From Auanema rhodensis (Eukaryota; Animalia; Nematoda), in assembly GCA_964057225.1 (NCBI GenBank), contig OZ059896.1, positions 434,001-498,000 of the forward strand: a stretch of DNA of 64,000 nucleotides, given 5' to 3'. Numbering within the stretch: the stretch's first letter is position 1; each line of letters begins with the position of its first letter. The notes below the pieces were generated by a model. The model searched no databases. It was not told the DNA's origin and worked only from the letters and a program-made list of their open reading frames with translations. The position numbers were made by a program, and so were the translations under genes. Positions 6,001 to 29,000 of this stretch are shown here, one piece after another.

Positions 6001-9000
6001 AAGCGAGTTACATACCAAGTGCACATCACGTGTACATTTAATTAGCATAAATTAAAGTTCACGTAAATTTCAAAGTCATGGTTACCATGAAGCAATATCA
6101 ATAAAAATTTGTTTTTAGACTAATATGGACATGGGGAATCTAATTTTGAAAACCGCATCTCTTTATCTTTCACGTGAAGCGAGTTACATACCAAGTGCAC
6201 ATCACGTGTACATTTAATTAGCATAAATTAAAGTTCACGTAAATTTCAAAGTCATGGTTACCATGAACCAATATCAATAAAAATTTGTTTTTAGACTAAT
6301 ATGGACATGGGGAATCTAATTTTGAAAACCGCATCTCTTTATCTTTCACGTGAAGCGAGTTACATACCAAGTGCACATCACGTGTACATTTAATTAGCAT
6401 AAATTAAAGTTCACGTAAATTTCAAAGTCATGGTTACCATGAACCAATATCAATAAAAATTTGTTTTTAGACTAATATGGACATGGGGAATCTAATTTTG
6501 AAAACCGCATCTCTTTATCTTTCACGTGAAGCGAGTTACATACCAAGTGCACATCACGTGTACATTTAATTAGCATAAATTAAAGTTCACGTAAATTTCA
6601 AAGTCATGGTTACCATGAACCAATATCAATAAAAATTTGTTTTTAGACTAATATGGACATGGGGAATCTAATTTTGAAAACCGCATCTCTTTATCTTTCA
6701 CGTGAAGCGAGTTACATACCAAGTGCACACCACGTGTACATTTAATTAGCATAAATTAAAGTTCACGTAAATTTCAAAGTCATGGTTACCATGAACCAAT
6801 ATCAATAAAAATTTGTTTTTAGACTAATATGGACATGAGGAATCTAATTTTGAAAACCGCATCTCTTCATCTTTCACGTGAAGCGAGTTACATACCAAGT
6901 GCACATCACGTGTACATTTAATTAGCATAAATTAAAGTTCACGTAAATTTCAAAGTCATGGTTACCATGCACCAATATCAATAAAAATTTGTTTTTAGAC
7001 TAATATAGACATGGGGAATCTAATTTTGAAAACCGCATCTCTTTATCTTTCACGTGAAGCGAGTTACATACCAAGTGCACATCACGTGTACATTTAATTA
7101 GCATAAATTAAAGTTCACGTAAATTTCAAAGTCATGGTTACCATGAAGCAATACCAATAAAAATTTGTTTTTAGACTAATATGGACATGGGGAATCTAAT
7201 TTTGAAAACCGCATCTCTTTATCTTTCACGTGAAGCGAGTTACATACCAAGTGCACAACACGTGTACATTTAATTAGCATAAATTAAAGTTCACGTAAAA
7301 TTCAAAGTCATGGTTACCATGAACCAATATCAATAAAAATTTGTTTTTAGACTAATATGGACATGGGGAATCTAATTTTGAAAACCGCATCTCTTTATCT
7401 TTCACGTGAAGCGAGTTACATACCAAGTGCACATCACGTGTACATTTAATTAGCATAAATTAAAGTTCACGTAAATTTCAAAGTCATGGTTACCATGAAC
7501 CAATATCAATAAAAATTTGTTTTTAGACTACTATGGACATGGGAAATCTAATTTTGAAAACCGCATCTCTTTATCTTTCACGTGAAGCGAGTTACATACC
7601 AAGTGCACATCACGTGTACATTTAATTAGCATAAATTAAAGTTCACGTATATTTCAAAGTCTTGGTTACCATGAACTAATATCAATAAAAATTTGTTTTT
7701 AGACTAATATGGACATGGGGAATCTAATTTTGAAAACCGCATCTCTTTATCTTTCACGTGAAGCGAGTTACATACCAAGTGCACATCACGTGTACATTTA
7801 ATTAGCATAAATTAAAGTTCACGTAAATTTCAAAGTCATGGTTACCATGAAGCAATATCAATAAAAATTTGTTTTTAGACTAATATGGACATGGGGAATC
7901 TAATTTTGAAAACCGCATCTCTTTATCTTTCACGTGAAGCGAGTTACATACCAAGTGCACATCACGTGTACATTTAATTAGCATAAATTAAAGTTCACGT
8001 AAATTTCAAAGTCATGGTTACCATGAACCAATATCAATAAAAATTTGTTTTTAGACTAATATGGACATGGGGAATCTAATTTTGAAAACCGCATCTCTTT
8101 ATCTTTCACGTGAAGCGAGTTACATACCAAGTGCACATCACGTGTACATTTAATTAGCATAAATTAAAGTTCACGTAAATTTCAAAGTCATGGTTACCAT
8201 GAACCAATATCAATAAAAATTTGTTTTTAGACTAATATGGACATGGGGAATCTAATTTTGAAAACCGCATCTCTTTATCTTTCACGTGAAGCGAGTTACA
8301 TACCAAGTGCACATCACGTGTACATTTAATTAGCATAAATTAAAGTTCACGTAAATTTCAAAGTCATGGTTACCATGAACCAATATCAATAAAAATTTGT
8401 TTTTAGACTAATATGGACATGGGGAATCTAATTTTGAAAACCGCATCTCTTTATCTTTCACGTGAAGCGAGTTACATACCAAGTGCACACCACGTGTACA
8501 TTTAATTAGCATAAATTAAAGTTCACGTAAATTTCAAAGTCATGGTTACCATAAACCAATATCAATAAAAATTTGTTTTTAGACTAATATGGACATGGGG
8601 AATCTAATTTTGAAAACCGCATCTCTTTATCTTTCACGTGAAGCGAGTTACATACCAAGTGCACATCACGTGTACATTTAATTAGCATAAATTAAAGTTC
8701 ACGTAAATTTCAAAGTCATGGTTACCATGAACCAATATCAATAAAAATTTGTTTTTAGACTAATATGGACATGAGGAATCTAATTTTGAAAACCGCATCT
8801 CTTCATCTTTCACGTGAAGCGAGTTACATACCAAGTGCACATCACGTGTACATTTAATTAGCATAAATTAAAGTTCACGTAAAATTCAAAGTCATGGTTA
8901 CCATGAACCAATATCAATAAAAATTTGTTTTTAGACTAATATGGACATGGGGAATCTAATTTTGAAAACCGCATCTCTTTATCTTTCACGTGAAGCGAGT

Positions 9001-12000
9001 TACATACCAAGTGCACATCACGTGTACATTTAATTAGCATTAATTAAAGTTCACGTAAATTTCAAAGTCATGGTTACCATGAACCAATATCAATAAAAAT
9101 TTGTTTTTAGACTAATATGGACATGGGGAATCTAATTTTGAAAACCGCATTTCTTTATCTTTCACGTGAAGCGAGTTACATACCAAGTGCACATCACGTG
9201 TACATTTAATTAGCATAAATTAAAGTTCACGTAAAATTCAAAGTCATGGTTACCATGAACCAATATCAATAAAAATTTGTTTTTAGACTACTATGGACAT
9301 GGGGAATCTAATTTTGAAAACCGCATCTCTTTATCTTTCACGTGAAGCGAGTTACATACCAAGTGCACATCACGTGTACATTTAATTAGCATAAATTAAA
9401 GTTCACGTAAATTTCAAAGTCATGGTTACCATGAACCAATATCAATAAAAATTTGTTTTTAGACTAATATGGACATGGGGAATCTAATTTTGAAAACCGC
9501 ATCTCTTTATCTTTCACGTGAAGCGAGTTACATACCAAGTGCACACCACGTGTACATTTAATTAGCATAAATTAAAGTTCACGTAAATTTCAAAGTCATG
9601 GTTACCATGAACCAATATCAATAAAAATTTGTTTTTAGACTAATATGGACATGAGGAATCTAATTTTGAAAACCGCATCTCTTCATCTTTCACGTGAAGC
9701 GAGTTACATACCAAGTGCACATCACGTGTACATTTAATTAGCATAAATTAAAGTTCACGTAAATTTCAAAGTCATGGTTACCATGCACCAATATCAATAA
9801 AAATTTGTTTTTAGACTAATATAGACATGGGGAATCTAATTTTGAAAACCGCATCTCTTTATCTTTCACGTGAAGCGAGTTACATACCAAGTGCACATCA
9901 CGTGTACATTTAATTAGCATAAATTAAAGTTCACGTAAATTTCAAAGTCATGGTTACCATGAAGCAATACCAATAAAAATTTGTTTTTAGACTAATATGG
10001 ACATGGGGAATCTAATTTTGAAAACCGCATCTCTTTATCTTTCACGTGAAGCGAGTTACATACCAAGTGCACAACACGTGTACATTTAATTAGCATAAAT
10101 TAAAGTTCACGTAAAATTCAAAGTCATGGTTACCATGAACCAATATCAATAAAAATTTGTTTTTAGACTAATATGGACATGGGGAATCTAATTTTGAAAA
10201 CCGCATCTCTTTATCTTTCACGTGAAGCGAGTTACATACCAAGTGCACATCACGTGTACATTTAATTAGCATAAATTAAAGTTCACGTAAATTTCAAAGT
10301 CATGGTTACCATGAACCAATATCAATAAAAATTTGTTTTTAGACTACTATGGACATGGGGAATCTAATTTTGAAAACCGCATCTCTTTATCTTTCACGTG
10401 AAGCGAGTTACATACCAAGTGCACATCACGTGTACATTTAATTAGCATAAATTAAAGTTCACGTATATTTCAAAGTCTTGGTTACCATGAACTAATATCA
10501 ATAAAAATTTGTTTTTAGACTAATATGGACATGGGGAATCTAATTTTGAAAACCGCATCTCTTTATCTTTCACGTGAAGCGAGTTACATACCAAGTGCAC
10601 ATCACGTGTACATTTAATTAGCATAAATTAAAGTTCACGTAAATTTCAAAGTCATGGTTACCATGAAGCAATATCAATAAAAATTTGTTTTTAGACTAAT
10701 ATGGACATGGGGAATCTAATTTTGAAAACCGCATCTCTTTATCTTTCACGTGAAGCGAGTTACATACCAAGTGCACATCACGTGTACATTTAATTAGCAT
10801 AAATTAAAGTTCACGTAAATTTCAAAGTCATGGTTACCATGAACCAATATCAATAAAAATTTGTTTTTAGACTAATATGGACATGGGGAATCTAATTTTG
10901 AAAACCGCATCTCTTTATCTTTCACGTGAAGCGAGTTACATACCAAGTGCACATCACGTGTACATTTAATTAGCATAAATTAAAGTTCACGTAAATTTCA
11001 AAGTCATGGTTACCATGAACCAATATCAATAAAAATTTGTTTTTAGACTAATATGGACATGGGGAATCTAATTTTGAAAACCGCATCTCTTTATCTTTCA
11101 CGTGAAGCGAGTTACATACCAAGTGCACATCACGTGTACATTTAATTAGCATAAATTAAAGTTCACGTAAATTTCAAAGTCATGGTTACCATGAACCAAT
11201 ATCAATAAAAATTTGTTTTTAGACTAATATGGACATGGGGAATCTAATTTTGAAAACCGCATCTCTTTATCTTTCACGTGAAGCGAGTTACATACCAAGT
11301 GCACACCACGTGTACATTTAATTAGCATAAATTAAAGTTCACGTAAATTTCAAAGTCATGGTTACCATGAACCAATATCAATAAAAATTTGTTTTTAGAC
11401 TAATATGGACATGGGGAATCTAATTTTGAAAACCGCATCTCTTTATCTTTCACGTGAAGCGAGTTACATACCAAGTGCACATCACGTGTACATTTAATTA
11501 GCATAAATTAAAGTTCACGTAAATTTCAAAGTCATGGTTACCATGAACCAATATCAATAAAAATTTGTTTTTAGACTAATATGGACATGAGGAATCTAAT
11601 TTTGAAAACCGCATCTCTTCATCTTTCACGTGAAGCGAGTTACATACCAAGTGCACATCACGTGTACATTTAATTAGCATAAATTAAAGTTCACGTAAAA
11701 TTCAAAGTCATGGTTACCATGAACCAATATCAATAAAAATTTGTTTTTAGACTAATATGGACATGGGGAATCTAATTTTGAAAACCGCATCTCTTTATCT
11801 TTCACGTGAAGCGAGTTACATACCAAGTGCACATCACGTGTACATTTAATTAGCATTAATTAAAGTTCACGTAAATTTCAAAGTCATGGTTACCATGAAC
11901 CAATATCAATAAAAATTTGTTTTTAGACTAATATGGACATGGGGAATCTAATTTTGAAAACCGCATTTCTTTATCTTTCACGTGAAGCGAGTTACATACC

Positions 12001-14128
12001 AAGTGCACATCACGTGTACATTTAATTAGCATAAATTAAAGTTCACGTAAAATTCAAAGTCATGGTTACCATGAACCAATATCAATAAAAATTTGTTTTT
12101 AGACTACTATGGACATGGGGAATCTAATTTTGAAAACCGCATCTCTTTATCTTTCACGTGAAGCGAGTTACATACCAAGTGCACATCACGTGTACATTTA
12201 ATTAGCATAAATTAAAGTTCACGTATATTTCAAAGTCTTGGTTACCATGAACTAATATCAATAAAAATTTGTTTTTAGACTAATATGGACATGGGGAATC
12301 TAATTTTGAAAACCGCATCTCTTTATCTTTCACGTGAAGCGAGTTACATACCAAGTGCACATCACGTGTACATTTAATTAGCATAAATTAAAGTTCACGT
12401 AAATTTCAAAGTCATGGTTACCATGAACCAATATCAATAAAAATTTGTTTTTAGACTAATATGGACATGGGGAATCTAATTTTGAAAACCGCATCTCTTT
12501 ATCTTTCACGTGAAGCGAGTTACATACCAAGTGCACATCACGTGTACATTTAATTAGTATAAATTAAAGTTCACGTAAATTTCAAAGTCATGGTTACCAT
12601 GAACCAATATCAATAAAAATTTGTTTTTAGACTAATATGGACATGGGGAATCTAATTTTGAAAACCGCATCTCTTTATCTTTCACGTGAAGCGAGTTACA
12701 TACCAAGTGCACATCACTGGTACATTTAATTAGCATAAATTAAAGTTCACGTAAATTTCAAAGTCATGGTTACCATGCACCAATATAAATAAAAAGTTGT
12801 TTTTAGACTAATATGGACATGGGGAATCTAATTTTGAAAACCGCATCTCTTTATCTTTCACGTGAAGCGAGTTACATACCAAGTGCACATCACGTGTACA
12901 TTTAATTAGCATAAATTAAAGTTCACGTAAATTTCAAAGTCATGGTTACCATGAAGCAATACCAATAAAAATTTGTTTTTAGACTAATATGGACATGGGG
13001 AATCTAATTTTGAAAACCGCATCTCTTTATCTTTCACGTGAAGCGAGTTACATACCAAGTGCACAACACGTGTACATTTAATTAGCATAAATTAAAGTTC
13101 ACGTAAAATTCAAAGTCATGGTTACCATGAACCAATATCAATAAAAATTTGTTTTTAGACTAATATGGACATGGGGAATCTAATTTTGAAAACCGCATCT
13201 CTTTATCTTTCACGTGAAGCGAGTTACATACCAAGTGCACATCACGTGTACATTTAATTAGCATAAATTAAAGTTCACGTAAATTTCAAAGTCATGGTTA
13301 CCATGAACCAATATCAATAAAAATTTGTTTTTAGACTACTATGGACATGGGGAATCTAATTTTGAAAACCGCATCTCTTTATCTTTCACGTGAAGCGAGT
13401 TACATACCAAGTGCACATCACGTGTACATTTAATTAGCATAAATTAAAGTTCACGTATATTTCAAAGTCTTGGTTACCATGAACTAATATCAATAAAAAT
13501 TTGTTTTTAGACTAATATGGACATGGGGAATCTAATTTTGAAAACCGCATCTCTTTATCTTTCACGTGAAGCGAGTTACATACCAAGTGCACATCACGTG
13601 TACATTTAATTAGCATAAATTAAAGTTCACGTAAATTTCAAAGTCATGGTTACCATGAACCAATATCAATAAAAATTTGTTTTTAGACTACTATGGACAT
13701 GGGGAATCTAATTTTGAAAACCGCATCTCTTTATCTTTCACGTGAAGCGAGTTACATACCAAGTGCACATCACGTGTACATTTAATTAGCATAAATTAAA
13801 GTTCACGTATATTTCAAAGTCTTGGTTACCATGAACTAATATCAATAAAAATTTGTTTTTAGACTAATATGGACATGGGGAATCTAATTTTGAAAACCGC
13901 ATCTCTTTATCTTTCACGTGAAGCGAGTTACATACCAAGTGCACATCACGTGTACATTTAATTAGCATAAATTAAAGTTCACGTAAATTTCAAAGTCATG
14001 GTTACCATGAAGCAATATCAATAAAAATTTGTTTTTAGACTAATATGGACATGGGGAATCTAATTTTGAAAACCGCATCTCTTTATCTTTCACGTGAAGC
14101 GAGTTACATACCAAGTGCACATCACGTG
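1..14128. repeat. 176-bp satellite DNA array, left arm (~80 monomers)
   Basis: Period of 176 bp read directly (CTCTT at 1, 177, 353...). Consensus CTCTTTATCTTTCACGTGAAGCGAGTTACATACCAAGTGCACATCACGTGTACATTTAATTAGCATAAATTAAAGTTCACGTAAATTTCAAAGTCATGGTTACCATGAACCAATATCAATAAAAATTTGTTTTTAGACTAATATGGACATGGGGAATCTAATTTTGAAAACCGCAT, 56/176 GC. Monomers differ by only a few substitutions. Confidence 0.99.
14124..14128 (+). repeat. Target-site duplication, left copy (ACGTG)
   Basis: The satellite reads ...CACATCACGTG and then breaks off. It resumes at 20077 as ACGTGTACATTT, so ACGTG is present twice. Confidence 0.8.
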
Positions 14129-15502
14129 ACCTCATTCCGCGATTTGACCTTATTCCGCGATTTGACCTTATTCCGCGATTTGACCTTATTCCGCGATTTG
14201 ACCTTATTCCGCGATTTGACCTTATTCCGCGATTTGACCTTATTCCGCGATTTGACCTTATTCCGCGATTTGACCTTATTCCGCGATTTGACCTTATTCC
14301 GCGATTTGACCTCATTCCGCGATTTGACCTCATTCCGCGATTTGACCTCATTCCGCGATTTGACCTTATTCCGCGATTTGACCTTATTCCGCGATTTGAC
14401 CTCATTCCGCGATTTGACCTCATTCCGCGATTTGACCTTATTCCGCGATTTGACCTCATTCCGCGATTTGACCTCATTCCGCGATTTGACCTCATTCCGC
14501 GATTTGACCTCATTCCGCGATTTGACCTCATTCCGCGATTTGACCTCATTCCGCGATTTGACCTCATTCCGCGATTTGACCTCATTCCGCGATTTGACCT
14601 CATTCCGCGATTTGACCTCATTCCGCGATTTGACCTCATTCCGCGATTTGACCTCATTCCGCGATTTGACCTCATTCCGCGATTTGACCTCATTCCGCGA
14701 TTTGACCTCATTCCGCGATTTGACCTCATTCCGCGATTTGACCTCATTCCGCGATTTGACCTCATTCCGCGATTTGACCTCATTCCGCGATTTGACCTCA
14801 TTCCGCGATTTGACCTCATTCCGCGATTTGACCTCATTCCGCGATTTGACCTCATTCCGCGATTTGACCTCATTCCGCGATTTGACCTCATTCCGCGATT
14901 TGACCTCATTCCGCGATTTGACCTCATTCCGCGATTTGACCTCATTCCGCGATTTGACCTCATTCCGCGATTTGACCTCATTCCGCGATTTGACCTCATT
15001 CCGCGATTTGACCTCATTCCGCGATTTGACCTCATTCCGCGATTTGACCTCATTCCGCGATTTGACCTCATTCCGCGATTTGACCTCATTCCGCGATTTG
15101 ACCTCATTCCGCGATTTGACCTCATTCCGCGATTTGACCTCATTCCGCGATTTGACCTCATTCCGCGATTTGACCTCATTCCGCGATTTGACCTCATTCC
15201 GCGATTTGACCTCATTCCGCGATTTGACCTCATTCCGCGATTTGACCTCATTCCGCGATTTGACCTCATTCCGCGATTTGACCTCATTCCGCGATTTGAC
15301 CTCATTCCGCGATTTGACCTCATTCCGCGATTTGACCTCATTCCGCGATTTGACCTCATTCCGCGATTTGACCTCATTCCGCGATTTGACCTCATTCCGC
15401 GATTTGACCTCATTCCGCGATTTGACCTCATTCCGCGATTTGACCTCATTCCGCGATTTGACCTCATTCCGCGATTTGACCTCATTCCGCGATTTGACCT
15501 CA
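14127..15502 (+). repeat. 18-bp minisatellite (TGACCTCATTCCGCGATT) x76 plus 8-bp partial, at the 5' end of the LINE
   Basis: 14127-15494 is 1368 bp, i.e. 76 units, followed by TGACCTCA. The only variant is TGACCTTATT..., in copies 2-10, 14, 15 and 18. Confidence 0.98.
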
Positions 15503-15571
15503 CCTTGGTTGGTCGACTCCTGCTCGTGTCTCTCTGTATCCCATAACGCCGGACTGGTTTTGCAAGGTACG

Positions 15572-15689
15572 CTCTCTTTTTTTTTTTTTTTCTTCTCTTC
15601 TTTTATCTTTCTTCAACTTTCTTCTTCTCTTTTTCTTTTCTTCCTGTTATTTCATATATTTTTTTTTCATTTTCTCTGCTCTTTTACTT
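15572..15689 (+). other. Polypyrimidine (T/C) tract in the 5' UTR immediately upstream of ORF1
   Basis: ~120 nt almost entirely T/C, including a long T run, ending a few bases before the ATG at 15694. Confidence 0.85.
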
Positions 15690-15693
15690 AACT

Positions 15694-16761
15694 ATGTCTC
15701 CCGTAACTAACGAGTTTCTTACTACTGCTCTCGAATCACTTTCTGACTCCCTACATAATTCTTTTGCTGAATTATCAGTACAAATAAAAAATGAGCTCAG
15801 TAGTATTAAAACCGCAGTTGCAAAGCATGACTCCCGTATAACTTTTATAGAAACCGATTTCAAATCTCGTTTCGAAAAGTTAGAGAAAAAGTTAGCTCAA
15901 CTTTCTCTCACCAGTACTAACACACTCTTAAATTCACCCTCTTTGCTCTCTTCCTCCAATGTTGCATGTCAAATTCAAAAAATTAGATCAGAAGAGACAA
16001 AGTATGACTATCGATGTAAGAGAGCACTCTGGTTCCGTGTACCGGTCTCTTCCTCGGATTTACCTTCTGACCCTACTTCTTTACTTAAACTGGTCATTGA
16101 AAAATCCAACGACGCTACTTTGTCTAGTCTGATCAACACTAATCAAATAACTATTGCACGCTGTATCCTCAAATCTAAATCTCCCGGTCCACTCATCATC
16201 ACGTGTCCATCGGTTGAATTGCGGGATAAAATTATGACATCTATCAAAACGAATAAAACTAAATGTTTTGAATCTTTATCTAAAACTTTCATACGTCGCG
16301 ACTATCTTCCTTTTGAAATTCAACTGGAAAAGAATCTTCGTGAGGAAGCTAAAGAAAAAAATAAAAACAACACTAAGTCCGTCTTTTTGGTATGAGATCT
16401 CCGACTCATTGAAGTTTTCCGTAATTCTACCGATTCTCCAAATTCCCAAATAGCTCCTGTCCCTGCTTGTAACCAAACTCCCAAATCTCCAAGCCTTCAC
16501 ACTGCTCCTTTATTAACACCACACTCTCAAACACTTGCGTCTCCAATTCTTTTCTCTAGCCCCCCTTGTAAATCTGGTAGACTAAGCCGATCGAAGGATA
16601 GACAGAATCGCACGTCGAAAGATAAGCGTTCTTCTGTTAGCCCAAGACGACGCAAAAATCCACCACGATCTGCAAAGTTAACCTCAGATCAAATAACCAG
16701 GTCTGTTAGCATGAACCCTGCATTTCAACGTGTCGCGTCTGACAAAATGTCCTTTCGTTAA
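15694..16761 (+). pseudogene. LINE ORF1 (355 codons) interrupted by one in-frame TGA at 16393-16395
   Basis: The ORF track stops at 16395 (233 aa), but the same frame stays open for 121 more codons (DLRLIEVFRNSTDSPNS...SPRRRKNPPRS...DKMSFR) to TAA at 16759-16761, overlapping ORF2. Predicted N-terminal coiled coil (LSVQIKNELSSIK...RFEKLEKKLAQL), a FIRRDYLPFEIQLEKNLREEAKEKN helix-like segment and a basic Ser/Pro-rich tail fit a LINE ORF1. Confidence 0.8.
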
Positions 16762-19585
16762 CAATGTCTCGTCCTCAACCCCTCTTGTCTCTGCTAACCC
16801 TACCAGCTTCTCAGTTCAGTGTTTTAATGCACGATCTATCCTAAACAAACTTCATTCACTATCTCACGTTATTTCCCTATCCTCTCCTGATATAATTGCT
16901 ATATCGGAATCTTGGCTTTTTCCAGAGTTCGATTCCTACCTACTCCCGTGCAAAGATACTTACTCTATTTTTAGAGCCGATAGGTGTCTTTCACGTGGTG
17001 GTGGCGTTGTCCTCTATGTGAAAAGTCATGTCAAAGTCTGTCTCCTTTCCTGCTCTTCCCCTCAATCTTCCATACAATTCATTAACTTACTCATTCCTTC
17101 ACTCAATGCTGTTTTTTCACTTTGTTATCGTCCTCCAACAGCGTCTCATTCAGACTTTATTCTTTTTCTTTCTGATCTTCGTAAACAAATTTCTAGACGA
17201 TCGTTCTTTCTAACAGGCGATCTTAATTTCCCCAAAATCAATTGGGATCTCGGTATTTGCTCACAACCTTGCTCCTCTGGTAAATCTATTCTTCAATTTC
17301 TCAATGACTGCTGTTCCTATCAGTTAGTAAAGTTCCCTACCAGAGGCAAGAACATTCTCGATTATGTTATCACGGATAACATATCTAGTGTAGTCAACAT
17401 AGCTCGTTCTTCTCCCCTCGGTTCTTCGGATCATCATTCTGTCGTCTTCCATATTGTTTCAGACACTTTTCAGCTAGCTACTACAATCAACCCTTCCGAT
17501 ATTTCTTCCCCAGCAACACTTCCTATGTTTTCTGATCGTAATTTTCAAGCTGCCGATTACAACCTCATCAACCATAGACTAGCCAACATTGATTTTGCTA
17601 GTCATCTTTCAGGTCTCACTCCTTTAGACTCTTATTCCAAATTTATTCACATCCTCCACTCGGTCATCGATTGCTGCGTACCCAGGAAACAAGAAAGAAG
17701 AAAAAAGAAGATTGACCGAGATATCTTAAAACTCTCTTCTCACATAAACAAACTTAGTTCCTCTTATCATCATCATGATGAATTCCGCCGTAAAAAACTA
17801 TCTCTTTCTCTTGATAAACTCATCAAGAATAGATTGGCTTCTGAAGAGGAACGTATTGCTAACTATAAAAATTCAAAACTTTTTTACCGTTTCTGCAGAA
17901 CTCGTCTGGGCGGCAACACTTCAGATATCCCTGATCTCAAAATAGATAATAATTCTGTCTCGTCTGATTCTGACAAAGCTTCTATCTTTGCCAGTACCTT
18001 CTCTGTTCACCCTCTTCCTATCTCTTCAGCACATGCTCCTCTTTTCCCTTCTTCTGGTATCATCGATTTTATTGATGTGTCCCCTCTCAACGTCTACAAA
18101 ATTCTCTGTCAGTTACCTCTCCGGGTATCAACCTCTCCTGACGGAATCCCTTATTTTTTCCTAAAAAATTGTGCTTCTACTATTTCTCAGCCTCTAGCCT
18201 TTGTCTTTCACAATCTTCTTATTTCCTCCTCTTGCCCTGCTGACTGGAAAACAGCATGGATTCGTCCTGTTCTCAAATCAGGGCTTTCTTCAAACCCGGT
18301 TAATTATCGTCCTATTTCTCTCACATCCAGTCTGTCTAAAGTTTTTGAACGTCTTCTCCGTTCACCTCTTCTTGATTTTGGTATTTCCTCTGGCTGTATT
18401 TCACCTAATCAGTTTGCTTTTCTTCCAAAACGCAATACTGTATCGGCAATTCTTAGTAGTCATGTACTCTGGAGATCTTCAGTGGACAAGAAAAGACCTG
18501 TTTATGTTGCCTTCATTGACTTCTCCAAGGCTTTCGATCTTATAAATCATTCTGTTCTTTTAACTAAACTAAAATCAATTGGTATCGACGGCTGTATTCA
18601 CTCTTTTCTCAAAAATTTCATTACTGATAGATCCTTCTCGGTATTGGTTAATTATTCTCTATCCGCCAAAAATCGTTTGCCCTGTGGAGTTCCACAAGGG
18701 ACAGTTCTGGGTCCACTTCTTTTCTTATTTTACATAAATGACATCACATCAAACTTACCCGTTGACGTGCATCCAACTCTCTATGCGGATGATCTCAAAC
18801 TAAGCAGCACTAATCCTGTAAGTTTACAATTGGCCTTGGATAATCTGAAAAACTGGTGTCTATTAAACGGTATGAAGGTAAATACTACTAAATCTAAAGT
18901 TATGATTATATCTAGCACTACTACATCAAGATTAAACACAATTTTCAAATTTGGCAACATCTCGTTAGCCACAGTAACAACATACAAAGATCTTGGTGTA
19001 TGTACTGACTATAATCTTTCTTTCAATAGCCATATAAATAGAATCTCTAACATCGCTGCTCACAAATGTCGTGTTATCTTGCGTTGTTTTTACTCTAGAT
19101 CACCAACCTTGATGTTTAAACTGTTTTGCTGCTATATCAGGCCTATTTTAGAATATGCCTCAGTTGTATGGTCTCCTCAAAATAACAAGGATAAAGCACG
19201 CATTGAGTCCGTGCAAAAAAAGTTCTTAAACGCTATTTTCAAGAGAGCCGAAATAGCTTTGGATTACAAAAACCAGCTATTGTTTCTTGGAGCTAAGGAA
19301 CTTTCTTTTAGAAGACTATTAATTGATCTCGTCTTCTATCACAATCAGATAACTAAAAACATTCCAGAAAACAGCCTTAATTTTTTTACTATCAAGCACT
19401 ACGCACATTCACTTCGTAGGCACCTATGGAATGTTGAATATCCTGATCTTTGGAGAAGCGAAACAAGAACTGGAATTGAATACAGAGCTATTCAAATCTG
19501 GAACGCTCTTCCTGAAAACATCATTCAACTGAGAAAAACCTCCAGCTTCAGAAAACACCTATCTGTTATTTTAAATGATTTTTAA
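16730..19585 (+). CDS. LINE ORF2: apurinic-like endonuclease plus reverse transcriptase (CR1-like); true start uncertain
   Basis: APE motifs FNARS, ISESWL, GGGV, YRPP, GDLN, PTR..LDYV, SDH. RT motifs PDGI, NYRPISLTS, DFSKAFD, GVPQGTVLGPLLF, YADD (18782-18793), KDLGV. C-terminal RPILEYASVVWSP..IESVQKKF is typical of CR1-group ORF2. 951 uninterrupted codons. The called start is GTG and the first in-frame ATG is at 17525. Confidence 0.96.
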   Translation: MSRLTKCPFVNNVSSSTPLVSANPTSFSVQCFNARSILNKLHSLSHVISLSSPDIIAISESWLFPEFDSYLLPCKDTYSIFRADRCLSRGGGVVLYVKSHVKVCLLSCSSPQSSIQFINLLIPSLNAVFSLCYRPPTASHSDFILFLSDLRKQISRRSFFLTGDLNFPKINWDLGICSQPCSSGKSILQFLNDCCSYQLVKFPTRGKNILDYVITDNISSVVNIARSSPLGSSDHHSVVFHIVSDTFQLATTINPSDISSPATLPMFSDRNFQAADYNLINHRLANIDFASHLSGLTPLDSYSKFIHILHSVIDCCVPRKQERRKKKIDRDILKLSSHINKLSSSYHHHDEFRRKKLSLSLDKLIKNRLASEEERIANYKNSKLFYRFCRTRLGGNTSDIPDLKIDNNSVSSDSDKASIFASTFSVHPLPISSAHAPLFPSSGIIDFIDVSPLNVYKILCQLPLRVSTSPDGIPYFFLKNCASTISQPLAFVFHNLLISSSCPADWKTAWIRPVLKSGLSSNPVNYRPISLTSSLSKVFERLLRSPLLDFGISSGCISPNQFAFLPKRNTVSAILSSHVLWRSSVDKKRPVYVAFIDFSKAFDLINHSVLLTKLKSIGIDGCIHSFLKNFITDRSFSVLVNYSLSAKNRLPCGVPQGTVLGPLLFLFYINDITSNLPVDVHPTLYADDLKLSSTNPVSLQLALDNLKNWCLLNGMKVNTTKSKVMIISSTTTSRLNTIFKFGNISLATVTTYKDLGVCTDYNLSFNSHINRISNIAAHKCRVILRCFYSRSPTLMFKLFCCYIRPILEYASVVWSPQNNKDKARIESVQKKFLNAIFKRAEIALDYKNQLLFLGAKELSFRRLLIDLVFYHNQITKNIPENSLNFFTIKHYAHSLRRHLWNVEYPDLWRSETRTGIEYRAIQIWNALPENIIQLRKTSSFRKHLSVILNDF
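16750..16761 (+). promoter_or_regulatory. Putative +1 programmed ribosomal frameshift site TCC_TTT_CGT_TAA at the ORF1/ORF2 overlap
   Basis: In the ORF1 frame the last codons are TCC TTT CGT TAA. The +1 frame reads TTC GTT AAC AAT (F-V-N-N), which is ORF2. Matches the UCC_UUU_CGU motif. Confidence 0.6.
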
Positions 19586-20076
19586 CCTGCTCTGATTAAT
19601 GTAACTTGAAATCCTCTCATGTATATTTTTTTTTTCCCTATTACTAGCCTCCTAGCCTCACTGTATGTTATAGTTAGACAGTTTCCTAGTTAACCTCCGA
19701 GACCTGTTACTATGCTCCGAATCCTATAGACATTAGTCATATGGATCAAGCGTTAGTTACCTCTTACTGTCAGAACGGGCTCGACTCATGTCAAGGGTTC
19801 CACCGCACCTGTCAGAATAATACAGAGGTCAGTGATCTACACTGAACAAATTTTCTCTCCTCTACCTAACTAGAACTTCGAAACTTTAACACACCAGTAG
19901 TGCTGTACGCTATCATAATAAAAGGAAATATACACGACTCGTTTCTTTACATATATCAAGCCAATTATTATTATGTATGTTTGTATTGTAAGGTTCTTCT
20001 GTATATCTTTAATTTTCTCTATTTATTAACACTATTTCCGCTCTTAACCTGTGATTCGAACAATAAACCCGTTCAA
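19586..20076 (+). other. LINE 3' UTR (~490 nt)
   Basis: Unique sequence between the ORF2 stop and the resumption of the satellite. Confidence 0.85.
20062..20067 (+). terminator. AATAAA polyadenylation-signal-like hexamer at the element 3' end
   Basis: AATAAA lies 9 nt before the 3' junction and is followed by CCCGTTCAA, with no poly(A) tract. Confidence 0.6.
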
Positions 20077-20081
20077 ACGTG
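20077..20081 (+). repeat. Target-site duplication, right copy (ACGTG)
   Basis: ...GTTCAA|ACGTG|TACATTTAATT matches 14124-14128. Confidence 0.8.
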
Positions 20082-23000
20082 TACATTTAATTAGCATAAA
20101 TTAAAGTTCACGTAAATTTCAAAGTCATGGTTACCATGAACCAATATCAATAAAAATTTGTTTTTAGACTAATATGGACATGGGGAATCTAATTTTGAAA
20201 ACCGCATCTCTTTATCTTTCACGTGAAGCGAGTTACATACCAAGTGCACATCACGTGTACATTTAATTAGCATAAATTAAAGTTCACGTAAATTTCAAAG
20301 TCATGGTTACCATGAACCAATATCAATAAAAATTTGTTTTTAGACTAATATGGACATGGGGAATCTAATTTTGGAAACCGCATCTCTTTATCTTTCACGT
20401 GAAGCGAGTTACATACCAAGTGCACATCACGTGTACATTTAATTAGCATAAATTAAAGTTCACGTAAATTTCAAAGTCATGGTTACCATGAACCAATATC
20501 AATAAAAATTTGTTTTTAGACTAATATGGACATGAGGAATCTAATTTTGAAAACCGCATCTCTTCATCTTTCACGTGAAGCGAGTTACATACCAAGTGCA
20601 CATCACGTGTACATTTAATTAGCATAAATTAAAGTTCACGTAAAATTCAAAGTCATGGTTACCATGAACCAATATCAATAAAAATTTGTTTTTAGACTAA
20701 TATGGACATGGGGAATCTAATTTTGAAAACCGCATCTCTTTATCTTTCACGTGAAGCGAGTTACATACCAAGTGCACATCACGTGTACATTTAATTAGCA
20801 TTAATTAAAGTTCACGTAAATTTCAAAGTCATGGTTACCATGAACCAATATCAATAAAAATTTGTTTTTAGACTAATATGGACATGGGGAATCTAATTTT
20901 GGAAACCGCATTTCTTTATCTTTCACGTGAAGCGAGTTACATACCAAGTGCACATCACGTGTACATTTAATTAGCATAAATTAAAGTTCACGTAAAATTC
21001 AAAGTCATGGTTACCATGAACCAATATCAATAAAAATTTGTTTTTAGACTACTATGGACATGGGGAATCTAATTTTGAAAACCGCATCTCTTTATCTTTC
21101 ACGTGAAGCGAGTTACATACCAAGTGCACATCACGTGTACATTTAATTAGCATAAATTAAAGTTCACGTATATTTCAAAGTCTTGGTTACCATGAACTAA
21201 TATCAATATAAATTTGTTTTTAGACTAATATGGACATGGGGAATCTAATTTTGAAAACCGCATCTCTTTATCTTTCACGTGAAGCGAGTTACATACCAAG
21301 TGCACATCACGTGTACATTTAATTAGCATAAATTAAAGTTCACGTAAATTTCAAAGTCATGGTTACCATGAACCAATATCAATAAAAATTTGTTTTTAGA
21401 CTAATATGGACATGGGGAATCTAATTTTGAAAACCGCATCTCTTTATCTTTCACGTGAAGCGAGTTACATACCAAGTGCACATCACGTGTACATTTAATT
21501 AGTATAAATTAAAGTTCACGTAAATTTCAAAGTCATGGTTACCATGAACCAATATCAATAAAAATTTGTTTTTAGACTAATATGGACATGGGGAATCTAA
21601 TTTTGAAAACCGCATCTCTTTATCTTTCACGTGAAGCGAGTTACATACCAAGTGCACATCACTGGTACATTTAATTAGCATAAATTAAAGTTCACGTAAA
21701 TTTCAAAGTCATGGTTACCATGCACCAATATCAATAAAAAGTTGTTTTTAGACTAATATGGACATGGGGAATCTAATTTTGAAAACCGCATCTCTTTATC
21801 TTTCACGTGAAGCGAGTTATATACCAAGTGCACATCACGTGTACATTTAATTAGCATAAATTAAAGTTCACGTTAAATTCAAAGTCATGGTTACCATGAA
21901 CCAATATCAATAAAAATTTGTTTTTAGACTAATATGGACATGGTGAATCTAATTTTGAGAACCGCATCTCTTTATCTTTCACGTGAAGCGAGTTACATAC
22001 CAAGTGCACATCACGTGTACATTTAATTAGCATAAATTAAAGTTCACGTAAATTTCAAAGTCATGGTTACCATGAACCAATATCAATAACAATTTGTTTT
22101 TAGACTAATATGGACATGGGGAATCTAATTTTGAAAACCGCATCTCTTTATCTTTCACGTGAAGCGAGTTACATACCAAGTGCACATCACGTGTACATTT
22201 AATTAGCATAAATTAAAGTTCACGTAAATTTCAAAGTCATGGTTACCATGAACCAATATCAATAAAAATTTGTTTTTAGACTAATATGGACATGGGGAAT
22301 CTAATTTTGAAAACCGCATCTCTTTATCTTTCACGTGAAGCGAGTTACATACCAAGTGCACACCACGTGTACATTTAATTAGCATAAATTAAAGTTCACG
22401 TAAATTTCAAAGTCATGGTTACCATGAACCAATATCAATAAAAATTTGTTTTTAGACTAATATGGACATGAGGAATCTAATTTTGAAAACCGCATCTCTT
22501 CATCTTTCACGTGAAGCGAGTTACATACCAAGTGCACATCACGTGTACATTTAATTAGCATAAATTAAAGTTCACGTAAATTTCAAAGTCATGGTTACCA
22601 TGCACCAATATCAATAAAAATTTGTTTTTAGACTAATATAGACATGGGGAATCTAATTTTGAAAACCGCATCTCTTTATCTTTCACGTGAAGCGAGTTAC
22701 ATACCAAGTGCACATCACGTGTACATTTAATTAGCATAAATTAAAGTTCACGTAAATTTCAAAGTCATGGTTACCATGAAGCAATACCAATAAAAATTTG
22801 TTTTTAGACTAATATGGACATGGGGAATCTAATTTTGAAAACCGCATCTCTTTATCTTTCACGTGAAGCGAGTTACATACCAAGTGCACAACACGTGTAC
22901 ATTTAATTAGCATAAATTAAAGTTCACGTAAAATTCAAAGTCATGGTTACCATGAACCAATATCAATAAAAATTTGTTTTTAGACTAATATAGACATGGG

Positions 23001-26000
23001 GAATCTAATTTTGAAAACCGCATCTCTTTATCTTTCACGTGAAGCGAGTTACATACCAAGTGCACATCACGTGTACATTTAATTAGCATAAATTAAAGTT
23101 CACGTAAATTTCAAAGTCATGGTTACCATGAACCAATATCAATAAAAATTTGTTTTTAGACTACTATGGACATGGGGAATCTAATTTTGAAAACCGCATC
23201 TCTTTATCTTTCACGTGAAGCGAGTTACATACCAAGTGCACATCACGTGTACATTTAATTAGCATAAATTAAAGTTCACGTATATTTCAAAGTCTTGGTT
23301 ACCATGAACTAATATCAATAAAAATTTGTTTTTAGACTAATATGGACATGGGGAATCTAATTTTGAAAACCGCATCTCTTTATCTTTCACGTGAAGCGAG
23401 TTACATACCAAGTGCACATCACGTGTACATTTAATTAGCATAAATTAAAGTTCACGTAAATTTCAAAGTCATGGTTACCATGAAGCAATATCAATAAAAA
23501 TTTGTTTTTAGACTAATATGGACATGGGGAATCTAATTTTGAAAACCGCATCTCTTTATCTTTCACGTGAAGCGAGTTACATACCAAGTGCACATCACGT
23601 GTACATTTAATTAGCATAAATTAAAGTTCACGTAAATTTCAAAGTCATGGTTACCATGAACCAATATCAATAAAAATTTGTTTTTAGACTAATATGGACA
23701 TGGGGAATCTAATTTTGAAAACCGCATCTCTTTATCTTTCACGTGAAGCGAGTTACATACCAAGTGCACATCACGTGTACATTTAATTAGCATAAATTAA
23801 AGTTCACGTAAATTTCAAAGTCATGGTTACCATGAACCAATATCAATAAAAATTTGTTTTTAGACTAATATGGACATGGGGAATCTAATTTTGAAAACCG
23901 CATCTCTTTATCTTTCACGTGAAGCGAGTTACATACCAAGTGCACATCACGTGTACATTTAATTAGCATAAATTAAAGTTTACGTAAATTTCAAAGTCAT
24001 GGTTACCATGAACCAATATCAATAAAAATTTGTTTTTAGACTAATATGGACATGGGGAATCTAATTTTGAAAACCGCATCTCTTTATCTTTCACGTGAAG
24101 CGAGTTACATACCAAGTGCACACCACGTGTACATTTAATTAGCATAAATTAAAGTTCACGTAAATTTCAAAGTCATGGTTACCATGAACCAATATCAATA
24201 AAAATTTGTTTTTAGACTAATATGGACATGGGGAATCTAATTTTGAAAACCGCATCTCTTTATCTTTCACGTGAAGCGAGTTACATACCAAGTTCACATC
24301 ACGTGTACATTTAATTAGCATAAATTAAAGTTCACGTAAATTTCAAAGTCATGGTTACCATGAACCAATATCAATAAAAATTTGTTTTTAGACTAATATG
24401 GACATGAGGAATCTAATTTTGAAAACCGCATCTCTTCATCTTTCACGTGAAGCGAGTTACATACCAAGTGCACATCACGTGTACATTTAATTAGCATAAA
24501 TTAAAGTTCACGTAAAATTCAAAGTCATGGTTACCATGAACCAATATCAATAAAAATTTGTTTTTAGACTAATATGGACATGGGGAATCTAATTTTGAAA
24601 ACCGCATCTCTTTATCTTTCACGTGAAGCGAGTTACATACCAAGTGCACATCACGTGTACATTTAATTAGCATTAATTAAAGTTCACGTAAATTTCAAAG
24701 TCATGGTTACCATGAACCAATATCAATAAAAATTTGTTTTTAGACTAATATGGACATGGGGAATCTAATTTTGAAAACCGCATCTCTTTATCTTTCACGT
24801 GAAGCGAGTTACATACCAAGTGCACACCACGTGTACATTTAATTAGCATAAATTAAAGTTCACGTAAATTTCAAAGTCATGGTTACCATGAACCAATATC
24901 AATAAAAATTTGTTTTTAGACTAATATGGACATGGGGAATCTAATTTTGAAAACCGCATCTCTTTATCTTTCACGTGAAGCGAGTTACATACCAAGTGCA
25001 CATCACGTGTACATTTAATTAGTATAAATTAAAGTTCACGTAAATTTCAAAGTCATGGTTACCATGAACCAATATCAATAAAAATTTGTTTTTAGACTAA
25101 TATGGACATGGGGAATCTAATTTTGAAAACCGCATCTCTTTATCTTTCACGTGAAGCGAGTTACATACCAAGTGCACATCACGTGTACATTTAATTAGCA
25201 TAAATTAAAGTTCACGTAAATTTCAAAGTCATGGTTACCATGCACCAATATCAATAAAAAGTTGTTTTTAGACTAATATGGACATGGGGAATCTAATTTT
25301 GAAAACCGCATCTCTTTATCTTTCACGTGAAGCGAGTTATATACCAAGTGCACATCACGTGTACATTTAATTAGCATAAATTAAAGTTCACGTTAAATTC
25401 AAAGTCATGGTTACCATGAACCAATATCAATAAAAATTTGTTTTTAGACTAATATGGACATGGGGAATCTAATTTTGAAAACCGCATCTCTTTATCTTTC
25501 ATGTGAAGCGAGTTACATACCAAGTGCACATCACGTGTACATTTAATTAGCATAAATTAAAGTTCACGTAAATTTCAAAGTCATGGTTACCATGAACCAA
25601 TATCAATAAAAATTTGTTTTTAGACTAATATGGACATGGGGAATCTAATTTTGAAAACCGCATCTCTTTATCTTTCACGTGAAGCGAGTTACATACCAAG
25701 TGCACATCACGTGTACATTTAATTAGCATAAATTAAAGTTCACGTAAATTTCAAAGTCATGGTTACCATGAACCAATATCAATAAAAATTTGTTTTTAGA
25801 CTAATATGGACATGGTGAATCTAATTTTGAAAACCGCATCTCTTTATCTTTCACGTGAAGCGAGTTACATACCAAGTGCACATCACGTGTACATTTAATT
25901 AGCATAAATTAAAGTTCACGTAAATTTCAAAGTCATGGTTACCATGCACCAATATCAATAAAAATTTGTTTTTAGACTAATATGGACATGGGGAATCTAA

Positions 26001-29000
26001 TTTTGAAAACCGCATCTCTTTATCTTTCACGTGAAGCGAGTTACATACCAAGTGCACATCACGTGTACATTTAATTAGCATAAATTAAAGTTCACGTAAA
26101 ATTCAAAGTCATGGTTACCATGAACCAATATCAATAAAAATTTGTTTTTAGACTAATATGGACATGGGGAATCTAATTTTAAAAACCGCATCTCTTTATC
26201 TTTCACGTGAAGCGAGTTACATACCAAGTGCACATCACGTGTACATTTAATTAGCATAAATTAAAGTTCACGTAAATTTCAAAGTCATGGTTACCATGAA
26301 CCAATATCAATAAAAATTTGTTTTTAGACTAATATGGACATGGGGAATCTAATTTTGAAAACCGCATCTCTTCATCTTTCACGTGAAGCGAGTTACATAC
26401 CAAGTGCACATCACGTGTACATTTAATTAGCATAAATTAAAGTTCACGTAAATTTCAAAGTCATGGTTACCATGCACCAATATCAATAAAAATTTGTTTT
26501 TAGACTAATATGGACATGGAGAATCTAATTTTGAAAACCGCATCTCTTTATCTTTCACGTGAAGCGAGTTACATACCATGTGCACATCACGTGTACATTT
26601 AATTAGCATAAATTAAAGTTCACGTAAATTTCAAAGTCATGGTTACCATGAACCAATATCAATAAAAATCTGTTTTTAGACTAATATGGACATGGGGAAT
26701 CTAATTTTGAAAACCGCATCTCTTTATCTTTCACGTGAAGCGAGTTACATACCAAGTGCACATCACGTGTACATTTAATTAGCATAAATTAAAGTTCACG
26801 TAAATTTCAAAGTCATGGTTACCATGAACAAATATCAATAAAAATTTGTTTTTAGACTAATATGGACATGGGGAATCTAATTTTGAAAACTGCATCTCTT
26901 TATCTTTCACGTGAAGCGAGTTACATACCAAGTGCACATCACGTGTACATTTAATTAGCATAAATTAAAGTTCACGTAAATTTCAAAGTCATGGTTACCA
27001 TGAACCAATATCAATAAAAATTTGTTTTTAGACTAATATGGACATGGGGAATCTAATTTTGAAAACCGCATCTCTTTATCTTTCACGTGAAGCGAGTTAC
27101 ATACCAAGTGCACATCACGTGTACATTTAATTAGCATAAATTAAAGTTCACGTAAATTTCAAAGTCATGGTTACCATGAACCAATATCAATAAAAATTTG
27201 TTTTTAGACTAATATGGACATGGGGAATCTAATTTTGAAAACCGCATCTCTTTATCTTTCACGTGAAGCGAGTTACATACCAAGTGCACATCACGTGTAC
27301 ATTTAATTAGCATAAATTAAAGTTCACGTAAATTTCAAAGTCATGGTTACCATGCACCAATATCAATAAAAATTTGTTTTTAGACTAATATGGACATGGG
27401 GAATCTAATTTTGAAAACCGCATCTCTTTATCTTTCACGTGAAGCGAGTTACATACCAAGTGCACATCACGTGTACATTTAATTAGCATAAATTAAAGTT
27501 CACGTAAATTTCAAAGTCATGGTTACCATGCACCAATATCAATAAAAATTTGTTTTTAGACTAATATGGACATGGGGAATCTAATTTTGAAAACCGCATC
27601 TCTTTATCTTTCACGTGAAGCGAGTTACATACCAAGTGCACATCACGTGTACATTTAATTAGCATAAATTAAAGTTCACGTAAATTTCAAAGTCATGGTT
27701 ACCATGAACCAATATCAATAAAAATTTGTTTTTAGACTAATATGGACATGGGGAATCTAATTTTGAAAACCGCATCTCTTTATCTTTCACGTGAAGCGAG
27801 TTACATACCAAGTGCACATCACGTGTACATTTAATTAGCATAAATTAAAGTTCACGTAAATTTCAAAGTCATGGTTACCATGAACTAATATCAATAAAAA
27901 TTTGTTTTTAGACTAATATGGACATGGGGAATCTAATTTTGAAAACCGCATCTCTTTATCTTTCACGTGAAGCGAGTTACATACCAAGTGCACATCACGT
28001 GTACATTTAATTAGCATAAATTAAAGTTCACGTAAATTTCAAAGTCATGGTTACCATGAACTAATATCAATAAAAATTTGTGTTTAGACTAATATGGACA
28101 TGGGGAATCTAATTTTGAAAACCGCATATCTTTATCTTTCACGTGAAGCGAGTTACATACCAAGTGCACATCACGTGTACATTTAATTAGCATAAATTAA
28201 AGTTCACGTAAATTTCAAAGTCATGGTTACCATGAAGCAATATCAATAAAAATTTGTTTTTAGACTAATATGGACAGGGGGAATCTAATTTTGAAAACCG
28301 CATCTCTTTATCTTTCACGTGAAGCGAGTTACATACCAAGTGCACATCACGTGTACATTTAATTAGCATAAATTAAAGTTCACGTAAATTTCAAAGTCAT
28401 GGTTACCATGAACCAATATCAATAAAAATTTGTTTTTAGACTAATATGGACATGGGGAATCTAATTTTGAAAACCGCATCTCTTTATCTTTCACGTGAAG
28501 CGAGTTACATACCAAGTGCACATCACGTGTACATTTAATTAGCATAAATTAAAGTTCACGTAAATTTCAAAGTCATGGTTACCATGAACCAATATCAATA
28601 AAAATTTGTTTTTAGACTAATATGGACATGGGGAATCTAATTTTGAAAACCGCATATCTTTATCTTTCACGTGAAGCGAGTTACATACCAAGTGCACATC
28701 ACGTGTACATTTAATTAGCATAAATTAAAGTTCACGTAAATTTCAAAGTCATGGTTACCATGAAGCAATATCAATAAAAATTTGTTTTTAGACTAATATG
28801 GACAGGGGGAATCTAATTTTGAAAACCGCATCTCTTTATCTTTCACGTGAAGCGAGTTACATACCAAGTGCACATCACGTGTACATTTAATTAGCATAAA
28901 TTAAAGTTCACGTAAATTTCAAAGTCATGGTTACCATGAACCAATATCAATAAAAATTTGTTTTTAGACTAATATGGACATGGGGAATCTAATTTTGAAA

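Follow-up and report, generated by a model that had tools for sequence, protein, structure and literature searches.

Background

How does a long interspersed nuclear element (LINE) produce its endonuclease (EN) and reverse transcriptase (RT) when the open reading frame (ORF) encoding both enzymes offers no ATG upstream of the endonuclease? This question is raised by an element found in a window of Auanema rhodensis DNA (GenBank assembly GCA_964057225.1, contig OZ059896.1, positions 434,001 to 498,000 of the forward strand). The window is the whole stretch of 64,000 nucleotides that was analysed, and all positions refer to its first letter. The element, here called CR1-like on grounds of resemblance, carries an ORF1 followed by an overlapping ORF2, and a first-pass annotation had proposed that the two are joined by a +1 ribosomal frameshift of the type known from influenza A PA-X. 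From the comparison of sequences described below, it is probable that the family makes its EN-RT as an ORF1-ORF2 fusion by low-level +1 frameshifting. The copy present in the window is itself crippled by a stop codon within its own ORF1.

Layout of the ORF1/ORF2 junction

The two frames and their junction comprise the following features.

15694..16761, forward strand: ORF1 frame, 355 codons from the ATG at 15694, interrupted in the window copy
16393..16395, forward strand: in-frame TGA in ORF1, private to this copy; the family reads C at 16393
16712..16714, forward strand: TGA opening the ORF2 frame
16715..16761, forward strand: ORF1/ORF2 overlap of 47 nt, ORF2 in +1
16718..16720, forward strand: CTG, a near-cognate codon of the ORF2 frame that reads ATA in subfamily B; possible start under the main alternative
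16750..16758, forward strand: TCC TTT CGT, predicted +1 shift cassette, with the slip tetranucleotide TTT-C at 16753-16756
16757..19585, forward strand: portion of the predicted fusion contributed by ORF2, 942 codons and a stop (linker, APE endonuclease, reverse transcriptase)
16759..16761, forward strand: ORF1 stop TAA
16764..16766, forward strand: ATG in the third frame, not the ORF2 start; lost in subfamily B, its frame closing early in family D
about 16823-17443, forward strand: APE endonuclease (Pfam)
17525..17527, forward strand: first in-frame ATG of ORF2, downstream of the endonuclease
about 18296-18907, forward strand: reverse transcriptase with YADD (Pfam)

The EN-RT frame counts 956 codons (16715-19585) and matches the Pfam families Exo_endo_phos, Exo_endo_phos_2 and RVT_1; no Pfam match to RNase H and no protease domain was found in ORF2. 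In agreement with the first-pass annotation, this frame opens directly after the TGA at 16712-16714, overlaps ORF1 by 47 nt in +1 and contains no ATG before 17525, that is, past the endonuclease match (residues 37-243). The latter ATG is nevertheless codon 271 of the open frame and not codon 266 as indicated there. ORF1 does end with ATG TCC TTT CGT TAA (16747-16761), and a fusion of 354 and 942 residues is arithmetically correct. The junction displays the arrangement of PA-X-type sites: a zero-frame UUU_C within a +1 overlap, a UCC codon for the E site and a CGN codon for the A site. An ORF2 AUG in frame at or near the ORF1 stop, as found in SART1, is absent. The sequence TCCTTTCGT is found once within 15503-19800. 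Based on the codon usage of the element, the post-hoc probability of encountering TCC TTT CGT in any of the 14 overlap positions is about 2e-4, and that of TTT CGN about 1.5e-2; the comparative data are much stronger than these single-element figures. No 3' stimulatory structure is predicted downstream of the window site (z +1.9 and +0.2), and a z below -2 was obtained for none of the 26 downstream regions of the window element and 25 relatives.

The window copy and its family

Other copies of the element were observed as collapsed contigs from five (X1, X2, X4, X7 and X10) of 14 listed runs, X10 contributing only two low-depth contigs of the compared stretch. ORF1 had been described as full-length, which does not hold for the window copy, where codon 234 is a TGA (16393-16395). 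All contigs covering position 16393, in all five runs, read C; the stop is therefore private to the window copy or to its assembly, and the ORF1 of the family is open. At least three further private letters (16724, 17233 and 17279) are present among 40 of the 282 differences. Because of the stop at 16393 the window copy is unable to make the fusion, and the proposal, supported for the family, applies to the family only.

Window-like contigs cross the junction ungapped (for instance record 6 of X1, 16609-16905, with one difference) and remain gap-free from ATG 16764 to the endonuclease. A second subfamily, B, is about 89% identical to the window (85-89 differences in 767-811 nt); its three 1-nt gaps at 16793-16798 amount to a net 3 nt, which leaves the frame relation unchanged. 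Among its 26 listed substitutions within 16543-16833, none falls within 16736-16763, although this invariant block taken alone is weak evidence, with a chance probability of about 7% by our estimate. A more distant family, D, represented by one X7 contig (depth 28.5), aligns to no more of a 561-nt stretch than 16282-16331 and 16748-16767. No difference is listed within 16748-16767, the depth profile confirms the span and the flanks are unalignable; in the next 30 letters, examined by eye, only the +1 frame stays open and the ATG-16764 frame closes after 10 codons.

No member of the family restores an in-frame ATG for ORF2, and the lack of a start codon is thus a property of the family. Two neighbouring ATGs were considered. 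A need for ATG 16747 as a start was set aside, the family D match beginning at 16748 and relatives generally having no Met at this place. The use of ATG 16764 through an indel was rejected, since no gap restores the frame and the codon is CTG in subfamily B. Independently of the junction, an island of 27-30 nt in the ORF1 tail (16553-16582) is matched by a diverged family with unalignable flanks, a possible conserved peptide or RNA element.

Survey of distant relatives

Relatives were collected by endonuclease alignment and chosen for their endonuclease score, without regard to the junction. Of 457 metagenome matches the best 80 were retained, and genome contigs supplied another 32 loci, for a total of 112. 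Eighteen of them lacked the endonuclease start and 28 more were dropped for the lack of an upstream ORF, the presence of a gap or an upstream ORF shorter than 85 codons. The 66 remaining loci define 63 families with less than 70% endonuclease identity to each other and at most 36% to the window element, in contigs that may stem from few host organisms. The set L081-L112 comprises about 30 eukaryote-type LINE fragments in prokaryote genome records, mostly metagenome-assembled genomes, which are likely host contamination.

ORF2 lies in +1 relative to ORF1 in 34 families, in -1 in 18 and in frame behind one stop in 11. An in-frame TTT-C is present in the last 15 ORF1 codons of 24/34, 1/18 and 0/11 of these families, respectively (Fisher p=1.7e-8), for a background expectation of 5.5% in that span or 0.38% per codon. 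All 24 sites are located within the overlap, and in the last 47 nt TTTC occupies the ORF1 frame in 24 families and another frame in one. L083 has its TTT-C 40 codons earlier, 5 codons past the opening of the ORF2 frame. Over the whole overlap the tetranucleotide is therefore found in 25 of the 34 +1 families, with 4.2 expected and a maximum of 14 in 200,000 simulations.

As in PA-X-type sites, this conservation extends beyond the needs of the amino acid sequence, which is apparent in the Phe codons, in the C/T bias preceding them and in the 20-nt island of family D. Of the Phe codons near the ORF1 end, 24/28 are TTT-C in the +1 class, against 1/11 in the other classes (p=1.5e-5), and the Pro or Ser codon preceding the site ends with C or T in 19/19 (background 486/983, p=1.5e-6). 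The resulting consensus, G-YCY-TTT-CNN at a median of 3 codons before the stop, is fitted by the window site. Any CNN codon is accepted in the A site (CGN in 10/25), and the E site is CCT, CCC or TCT, with a G before it in 18/25. The motif put forward by the first-pass annotation is thus conserved in frame among the relatives, but not as a strict UCC-UUU-CGU; the conserved core is (Y)CY-TTT-C followed by any CNN codon.

The survey also bears on where ORF2 may begin. Twelve +1 families have no ATG at all in ORF2, and 11 of them have the site. Neither ATG nor near-cognate codon separates the frame opening from the site in L012, L015, L021, L067 and L083. In nine families an ORF2-frame stop lies at most 6 codons upstream of the site, and ORF2 consequently cannot generally begin earlier. 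Two database proteins whose ORF1-like part shares the reading frame of the endonuclease, P0142 and the Ostertagia gene model P0133 from NCBI, were left out of the evidence, because such fusions can arise from gene models or decayed copies.

Proposed mechanism

In the favoured explanation a small share of the ribosomes would slip by +1 at the UUU-C that precedes the ORF1 stop by two codons. With UCC occupying the E site and CGU the A site, the P-site tRNA-Phe would exchange its pairing with UUU for one with UUC, a course of events modelled on PA-X; by the same analogy, no 3' RNA structure would be needed and the efficiency would be roughly 1%. Translation would proceed through a Ser/Thr-rich linker of about 17 residues into the endonuclease, giving much free ORF1p and little of a 1296-residue fusion in a Gag/Gag-Pol-like ratio. 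Given the lack of a detected protease domain in ORF2, the fusion would probably escape cleavage. We infer this fate, along with the low ratio and any role in cis-preference.

Alternative explanations

A number of observations weigh against frameshifting at 16753. The most serious concerns the substitutions of subfamily B, which fall at ORF1 third positions in 11/13 cases upstream of 16715 and in 0/5 cases in the overlap (Fisher p=0.0025). Of the five overlap substitutions, four lie before the slip site at third positions of the ORF2 frame (p=0.045 against a uniform distribution). This pattern suggests an ORF2-frame constraint in 16715-16736 which a shift at 16753 leaves unexplained, and the comparison of subfamilies A and B would accordingly place the constraint switch about 35 nt upstream of the slip site. 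The same pattern might also arise by chance if the ORF1 tail is relaxed. Among distant relatives, a search for a crossover from ORF1 to ORF2 constraint at the site was null in 9 pairs (13 vs 12 upstream, 10 vs 13 downstream, p=0.58). Nine of the 34 +1 families are devoid of the site, several of which look decayed by eye. In addition, the placement of the 20-nt piece within the family D contig is not displayed, and another diverged family aligns on both sides of the junction with no piece at the junction itself. Finally, the window element sits on a long branch of the tree described below and the motif families are related: independent pairs are concordant in 3-4 cases and discordant in none (p=0.125). 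As such pairs are too few for significance, the argument rests on the retention of synonymous letters in families whose proteins mostly share 30-60% identity rather than on counted origins.

The substitutions just mentioned, which favour the ORF2 frame from 16715 on, form part of the case for the best surviving alternative, that ORF2 is a separate protein made by unconventional initiation or by reinitiation after ORF1 termination at a near-cognate codon, the best being CTG 16718. That codon is near-cognate in both subfamilies (CTG, and ATA in B), an ancestral ATG being one change away from both, and L1 and SART1 are generally held to use reinitiation (PMC2881922, PMC10275272, PMC5009743). The substitution pattern nevertheless amounts to five substitutions, GTG 16730 is lost in subfamily B, and family D keeps only 16748-16767 of the junction and not the 16718 region. 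Above all, separate initiation leaves unexplained why 24-25 distant families share a frame-specific TTT-C and a synonymous C/T bias, and we regard it as unlikely.

The conserved Phe might alternatively belong to a protein motif at the ORF1 C-terminus, resembling PAM2 (LNPxAxPFxP), or be due to chance, ORF2 being expressed by another route. Pfam reports weak PAM2 matches in 3 of 12 ORF1 tails (E 0.015-0.066, below the curated cut-off), and 11/67 ORF1s show a PAM2-like pattern. The window ORF1 tail has no Pfam match to PAM2. Codon-level tests largely refute this alternative. The in-frame class codes the peptide with TTC, TAC or TTT followed by a letter other than C at 6/7 sites, whereas TTT-C is used at 4/4 in the +1 class; the Pro or Ser codons of the in-frame peptide end with a purine in 5/5. 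Its probability is very low. In their own right, the PAM2-like ORF1 C-termini (L011, L028, L030, L049, L053, L057, L060, L072, L078, L082 and L088) represent a possible contact with poly(A)-binding protein, and in +1 families the Pro-Phe codons of the peptide are the shift site.

Splicing of ORF1 to ORF2, for which 11 GT-AG pairs of at least 38 nt would give the right frame (one beginning exactly at 16757, a 58-nt intron 16757-16814 removing the stop and landing in the ORF2 frame), is the least credible alternative of all, as no contig joint fits any candidate intron in the five runs, where intron-less retrocopies would be expected, and GT directly follows TTT-C in only 5/25 related families.

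Other junction classes and phylogeny

Families in which ORF2 is not in +1 appear to reach the same end by other recoding signals, as judged from their junctions. In the in-frame class the ORF1 stop is TGA-C in 11/11 families (L001, L028, L030, L032, L049, L053, L072, L082, L088, L093 and L098) compared with 4/52 of the others (p=2e-9), and ten of the eleven have no upstream ORF2 ATG. UGA-C is a readthrough context, and the TGA-C at these stops likely denotes programmed readthrough. For the -1 class, an X_XXY_YYZ heptamer is present in the overlap of 13/18 families, a raw count uncorrected for background, and would be compatible with -1 slippage. It reads A_AAA_AAC in eight (L038, L045, L048, L052, L061, L062, L065 and L085) and T_TTA_AAC in two (L004 and L020), the further heptamer families being L027, L039 and L054. 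L038, L048, L052 and L065 carry their A_AAA_AAC no more than about 6 codons from the point where the ORF2 frame opens, in overlaps of 320-460 nt.

Two other peculiarities of these junctions were observed. In L018, L033, L038, L045, L048 and L054 the ORF1 end, CGC, CAC or AGC followed by the stop, overlaps, in -1, the sequence for the first endonuclease strand; of these six families, L018 and L033 are without heptamer. In L022 and L076, which belong to different branches, the upstream ORF ends with the same peptide, SSPAATAAGRHR-stop, and a PF-type peptide is encoded in the ORF2 frame itself, a possible case of ORF1 exchange or a fourth junction type.

A tree was built from 46 long ORF2s and 7 proteins. 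One clade holds all +1/TTT-C rows and 6/8 TGA-C rows, intermixed (L032 with L057, L001 with L009, L053 with L024), and 12/13 of the -1 rows form another clade. The window element joins the +1/TGA-C clade with a Shimodaira-Hasegawa-like approximate likelihood ratio test support of 95 (mixture model, 26 rows). Its group is made of unnamed elements, several with PHD-finger ORF1s, in a tree holding no named CR1 references. At least 10 changes of the junction class label are needed on this tree. On balance we lean towards the broader view that, across a large part of CR1-like LINEs, ORF2 would be a recoded ORF1-ORF2 fusion, sister families swapping +1 slippage (G-YCY-UUU-C, often within the codons of a PAM2-like peptide), UGA-C readthrough and -1 slippage.

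Comparison with known systems

The influenza A PA-X site, UCC_UUU_CGU, shifts with an efficiency of 0.74-1.3%, its position and direction having been established by mass spectrometry (PMC3498833). UUU_CGN has been proposed to fuse ORF1 to the polymerase in amalgaviruses (PMC5052127), and human PLEKHM2 uses UCC_UUU_CGG (10.1101/2024.08.30.610563); PA-X-type sites, PLEKHM2 included, require no 3' structure (PMC5009743, 10.1101/2024.08.30.610563). The window element shares with PA-X the identical 9-mer, in the zero frame and inside a +1 overlap, with no 3' structure predicted. It departs from these three systems in being a non-LTR (long terminal repeat) retrotransposon whose site lies 1 codon before the stop and is known from sequence alone. 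Its LINE relatives further differ from PA-X by a relaxation of the A site to CNN and of the E site to CCT, CCC or TCT.

In L1 and SART1, ORF2 is attributed to termination-reinitiation or unconventional initiation (PMC2881922, PMC10275272, PMC3708506, PMC5009743); PMC5009743 ascribes LINE ORF2 to unknown initiation and PMC3708506 covers reinitiation and 2A peptides. These elements share with ours a bicistronic ORF1-ORF2 RNA, and their ORF2 output is low and dependent on ORF1 translation. They produce a separate ORF2p, SART1 by means of an overlapping UAAUG, whereas the window family has no ORF2 AUG and is predicted to make a fusion. A precedent is provided by the non-LTR elements of Paramecium, a separate ciliate clade, for which +1 frameshifting or reinitiation (Groups 1 and 2) and readthrough (Group 3) have been suggested, the passages concerned neither naming a shift motif nor testing one (PMC5405496). 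Ty1 and Ty3 are examples of +1 recoding (PMC3498833), the Ty1 motif being CUU_AGG_C (PMC5052127). As with Gag-Pol, recoding would determine how much polymerase is made relative to structural protein, and the signals would vary between sister lineages; the differences from Ty1 reside in the +1 motif and in the lack of a detected protease domain in the window ORF2. Gag-Pol forms relying on -1 shifting and on readthrough also exist among LTR retrotransposons and retroviruses.

Frameshifting, readthrough and overlap go unmentioned in the available passages of a paper on ORF1 types (PMC4120745), and those of PMC1947958 contain nothing relevant. Among the papers listed by full-text searches, which covered neither Repbase Reports nor older CR1/T1 subscription papers, none describes this motif or a recoding survey in CR1-like LINEs. 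Older papers on CR1/T1 elements reportedly note overlapping ORFs, and earlier informal mentions are possible. The first-pass annotation knew of no non-LTR element with this motif; the idea of a +1 shift or readthrough was already present for Paramecium. The junction would represent a recoding signal of known kind in a new class of element, for which such a strategy has apparently not been demonstrated before.

The element and its setting

The remainder of the window is filled by a 176-bp satellite, in which k-mer coverage by the satellite unit reveals one non-satellite island of 5948 bp.

1..14128: 176-bp satellite array left of the insertion
14124..14128, forward strand: target-site duplication, left copy, ACGTG, 5 bp
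14127..15502, forward strand: 76 tandem copies of an 18-bp unit, internal to the duplication at the 5' end of the element
14129..20076, forward strand: CR1-like LINE insertion, 5948 bp, the only non-satellite island of the window
15503..15693, forward strand: 5' leader with a long pyrimidine tract
19586..20076, forward strand: 3' untranslated part, AATAAA at 20062-20067
20077..20081, forward strand: target-site duplication, right copy, ACGTG, 5 bp
20077..64000: 176-bp satellite array right of the insertion

The element is a young LINE insertion, flanked by the ACGTG duplication. The satellite is highly homogeneous, with 98% matches, and possibly centromeric or heterochromatic. The 18-bp units might be promoter monomers or a post-insertion expansion. 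CR1-clade 3' ends consist of short tandem repeats or poly(A); here the AATAAA is followed by 9 nt and the duplication, and neither a poly(A) nor a short-repeat tail was seen by eye.

ORF1 is putatively of the coiled-coil/RRM type, the types described for CR1/L2 being coiled coil with RRM and C-terminal domain, PHD or esterase (PMC4120745). The window ORF1 gave no significant Pfam match, and a homologue search among proteins of 128-408 residues was empty at E<=0.001. Comparison with the ORF1s of relatives by hhalign yielded E=0.15 with a probability of 0.4%, and the Atlas neighbours are unnamed eukaryotic clusters at 0.91-0.92. No relative of the element was found in the viral contigs scanned, and Rfam returned one chance-level match (E 0.52).

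Significance

The translation of LINE ORF2 is a long-standing open question, to which the literature offers reinitiation or an unknown initiation (PMC5009743, PMC10275272, PMC2881922). A defined signal that can be mutated synonymously makes it directly testable across a whole clade. If the frameshift is confirmed, these elements would provide many natural, non-viral cases of the poorly understood +1 shift on UUU-C, with E- and A-site preferences readable. The N-termini of CR1-like ORF2s annotated from the first Met would often be wrong, and the apparent stops or frameshifts between ORF1 and ORF2 would not be signs of decay. Under the broader view of a recoded fusion across CR1-like LINEs, these elements would share the retroviral Gag-Pol logic, and the ORF1p tether could deliver the enzyme to its own RNA.

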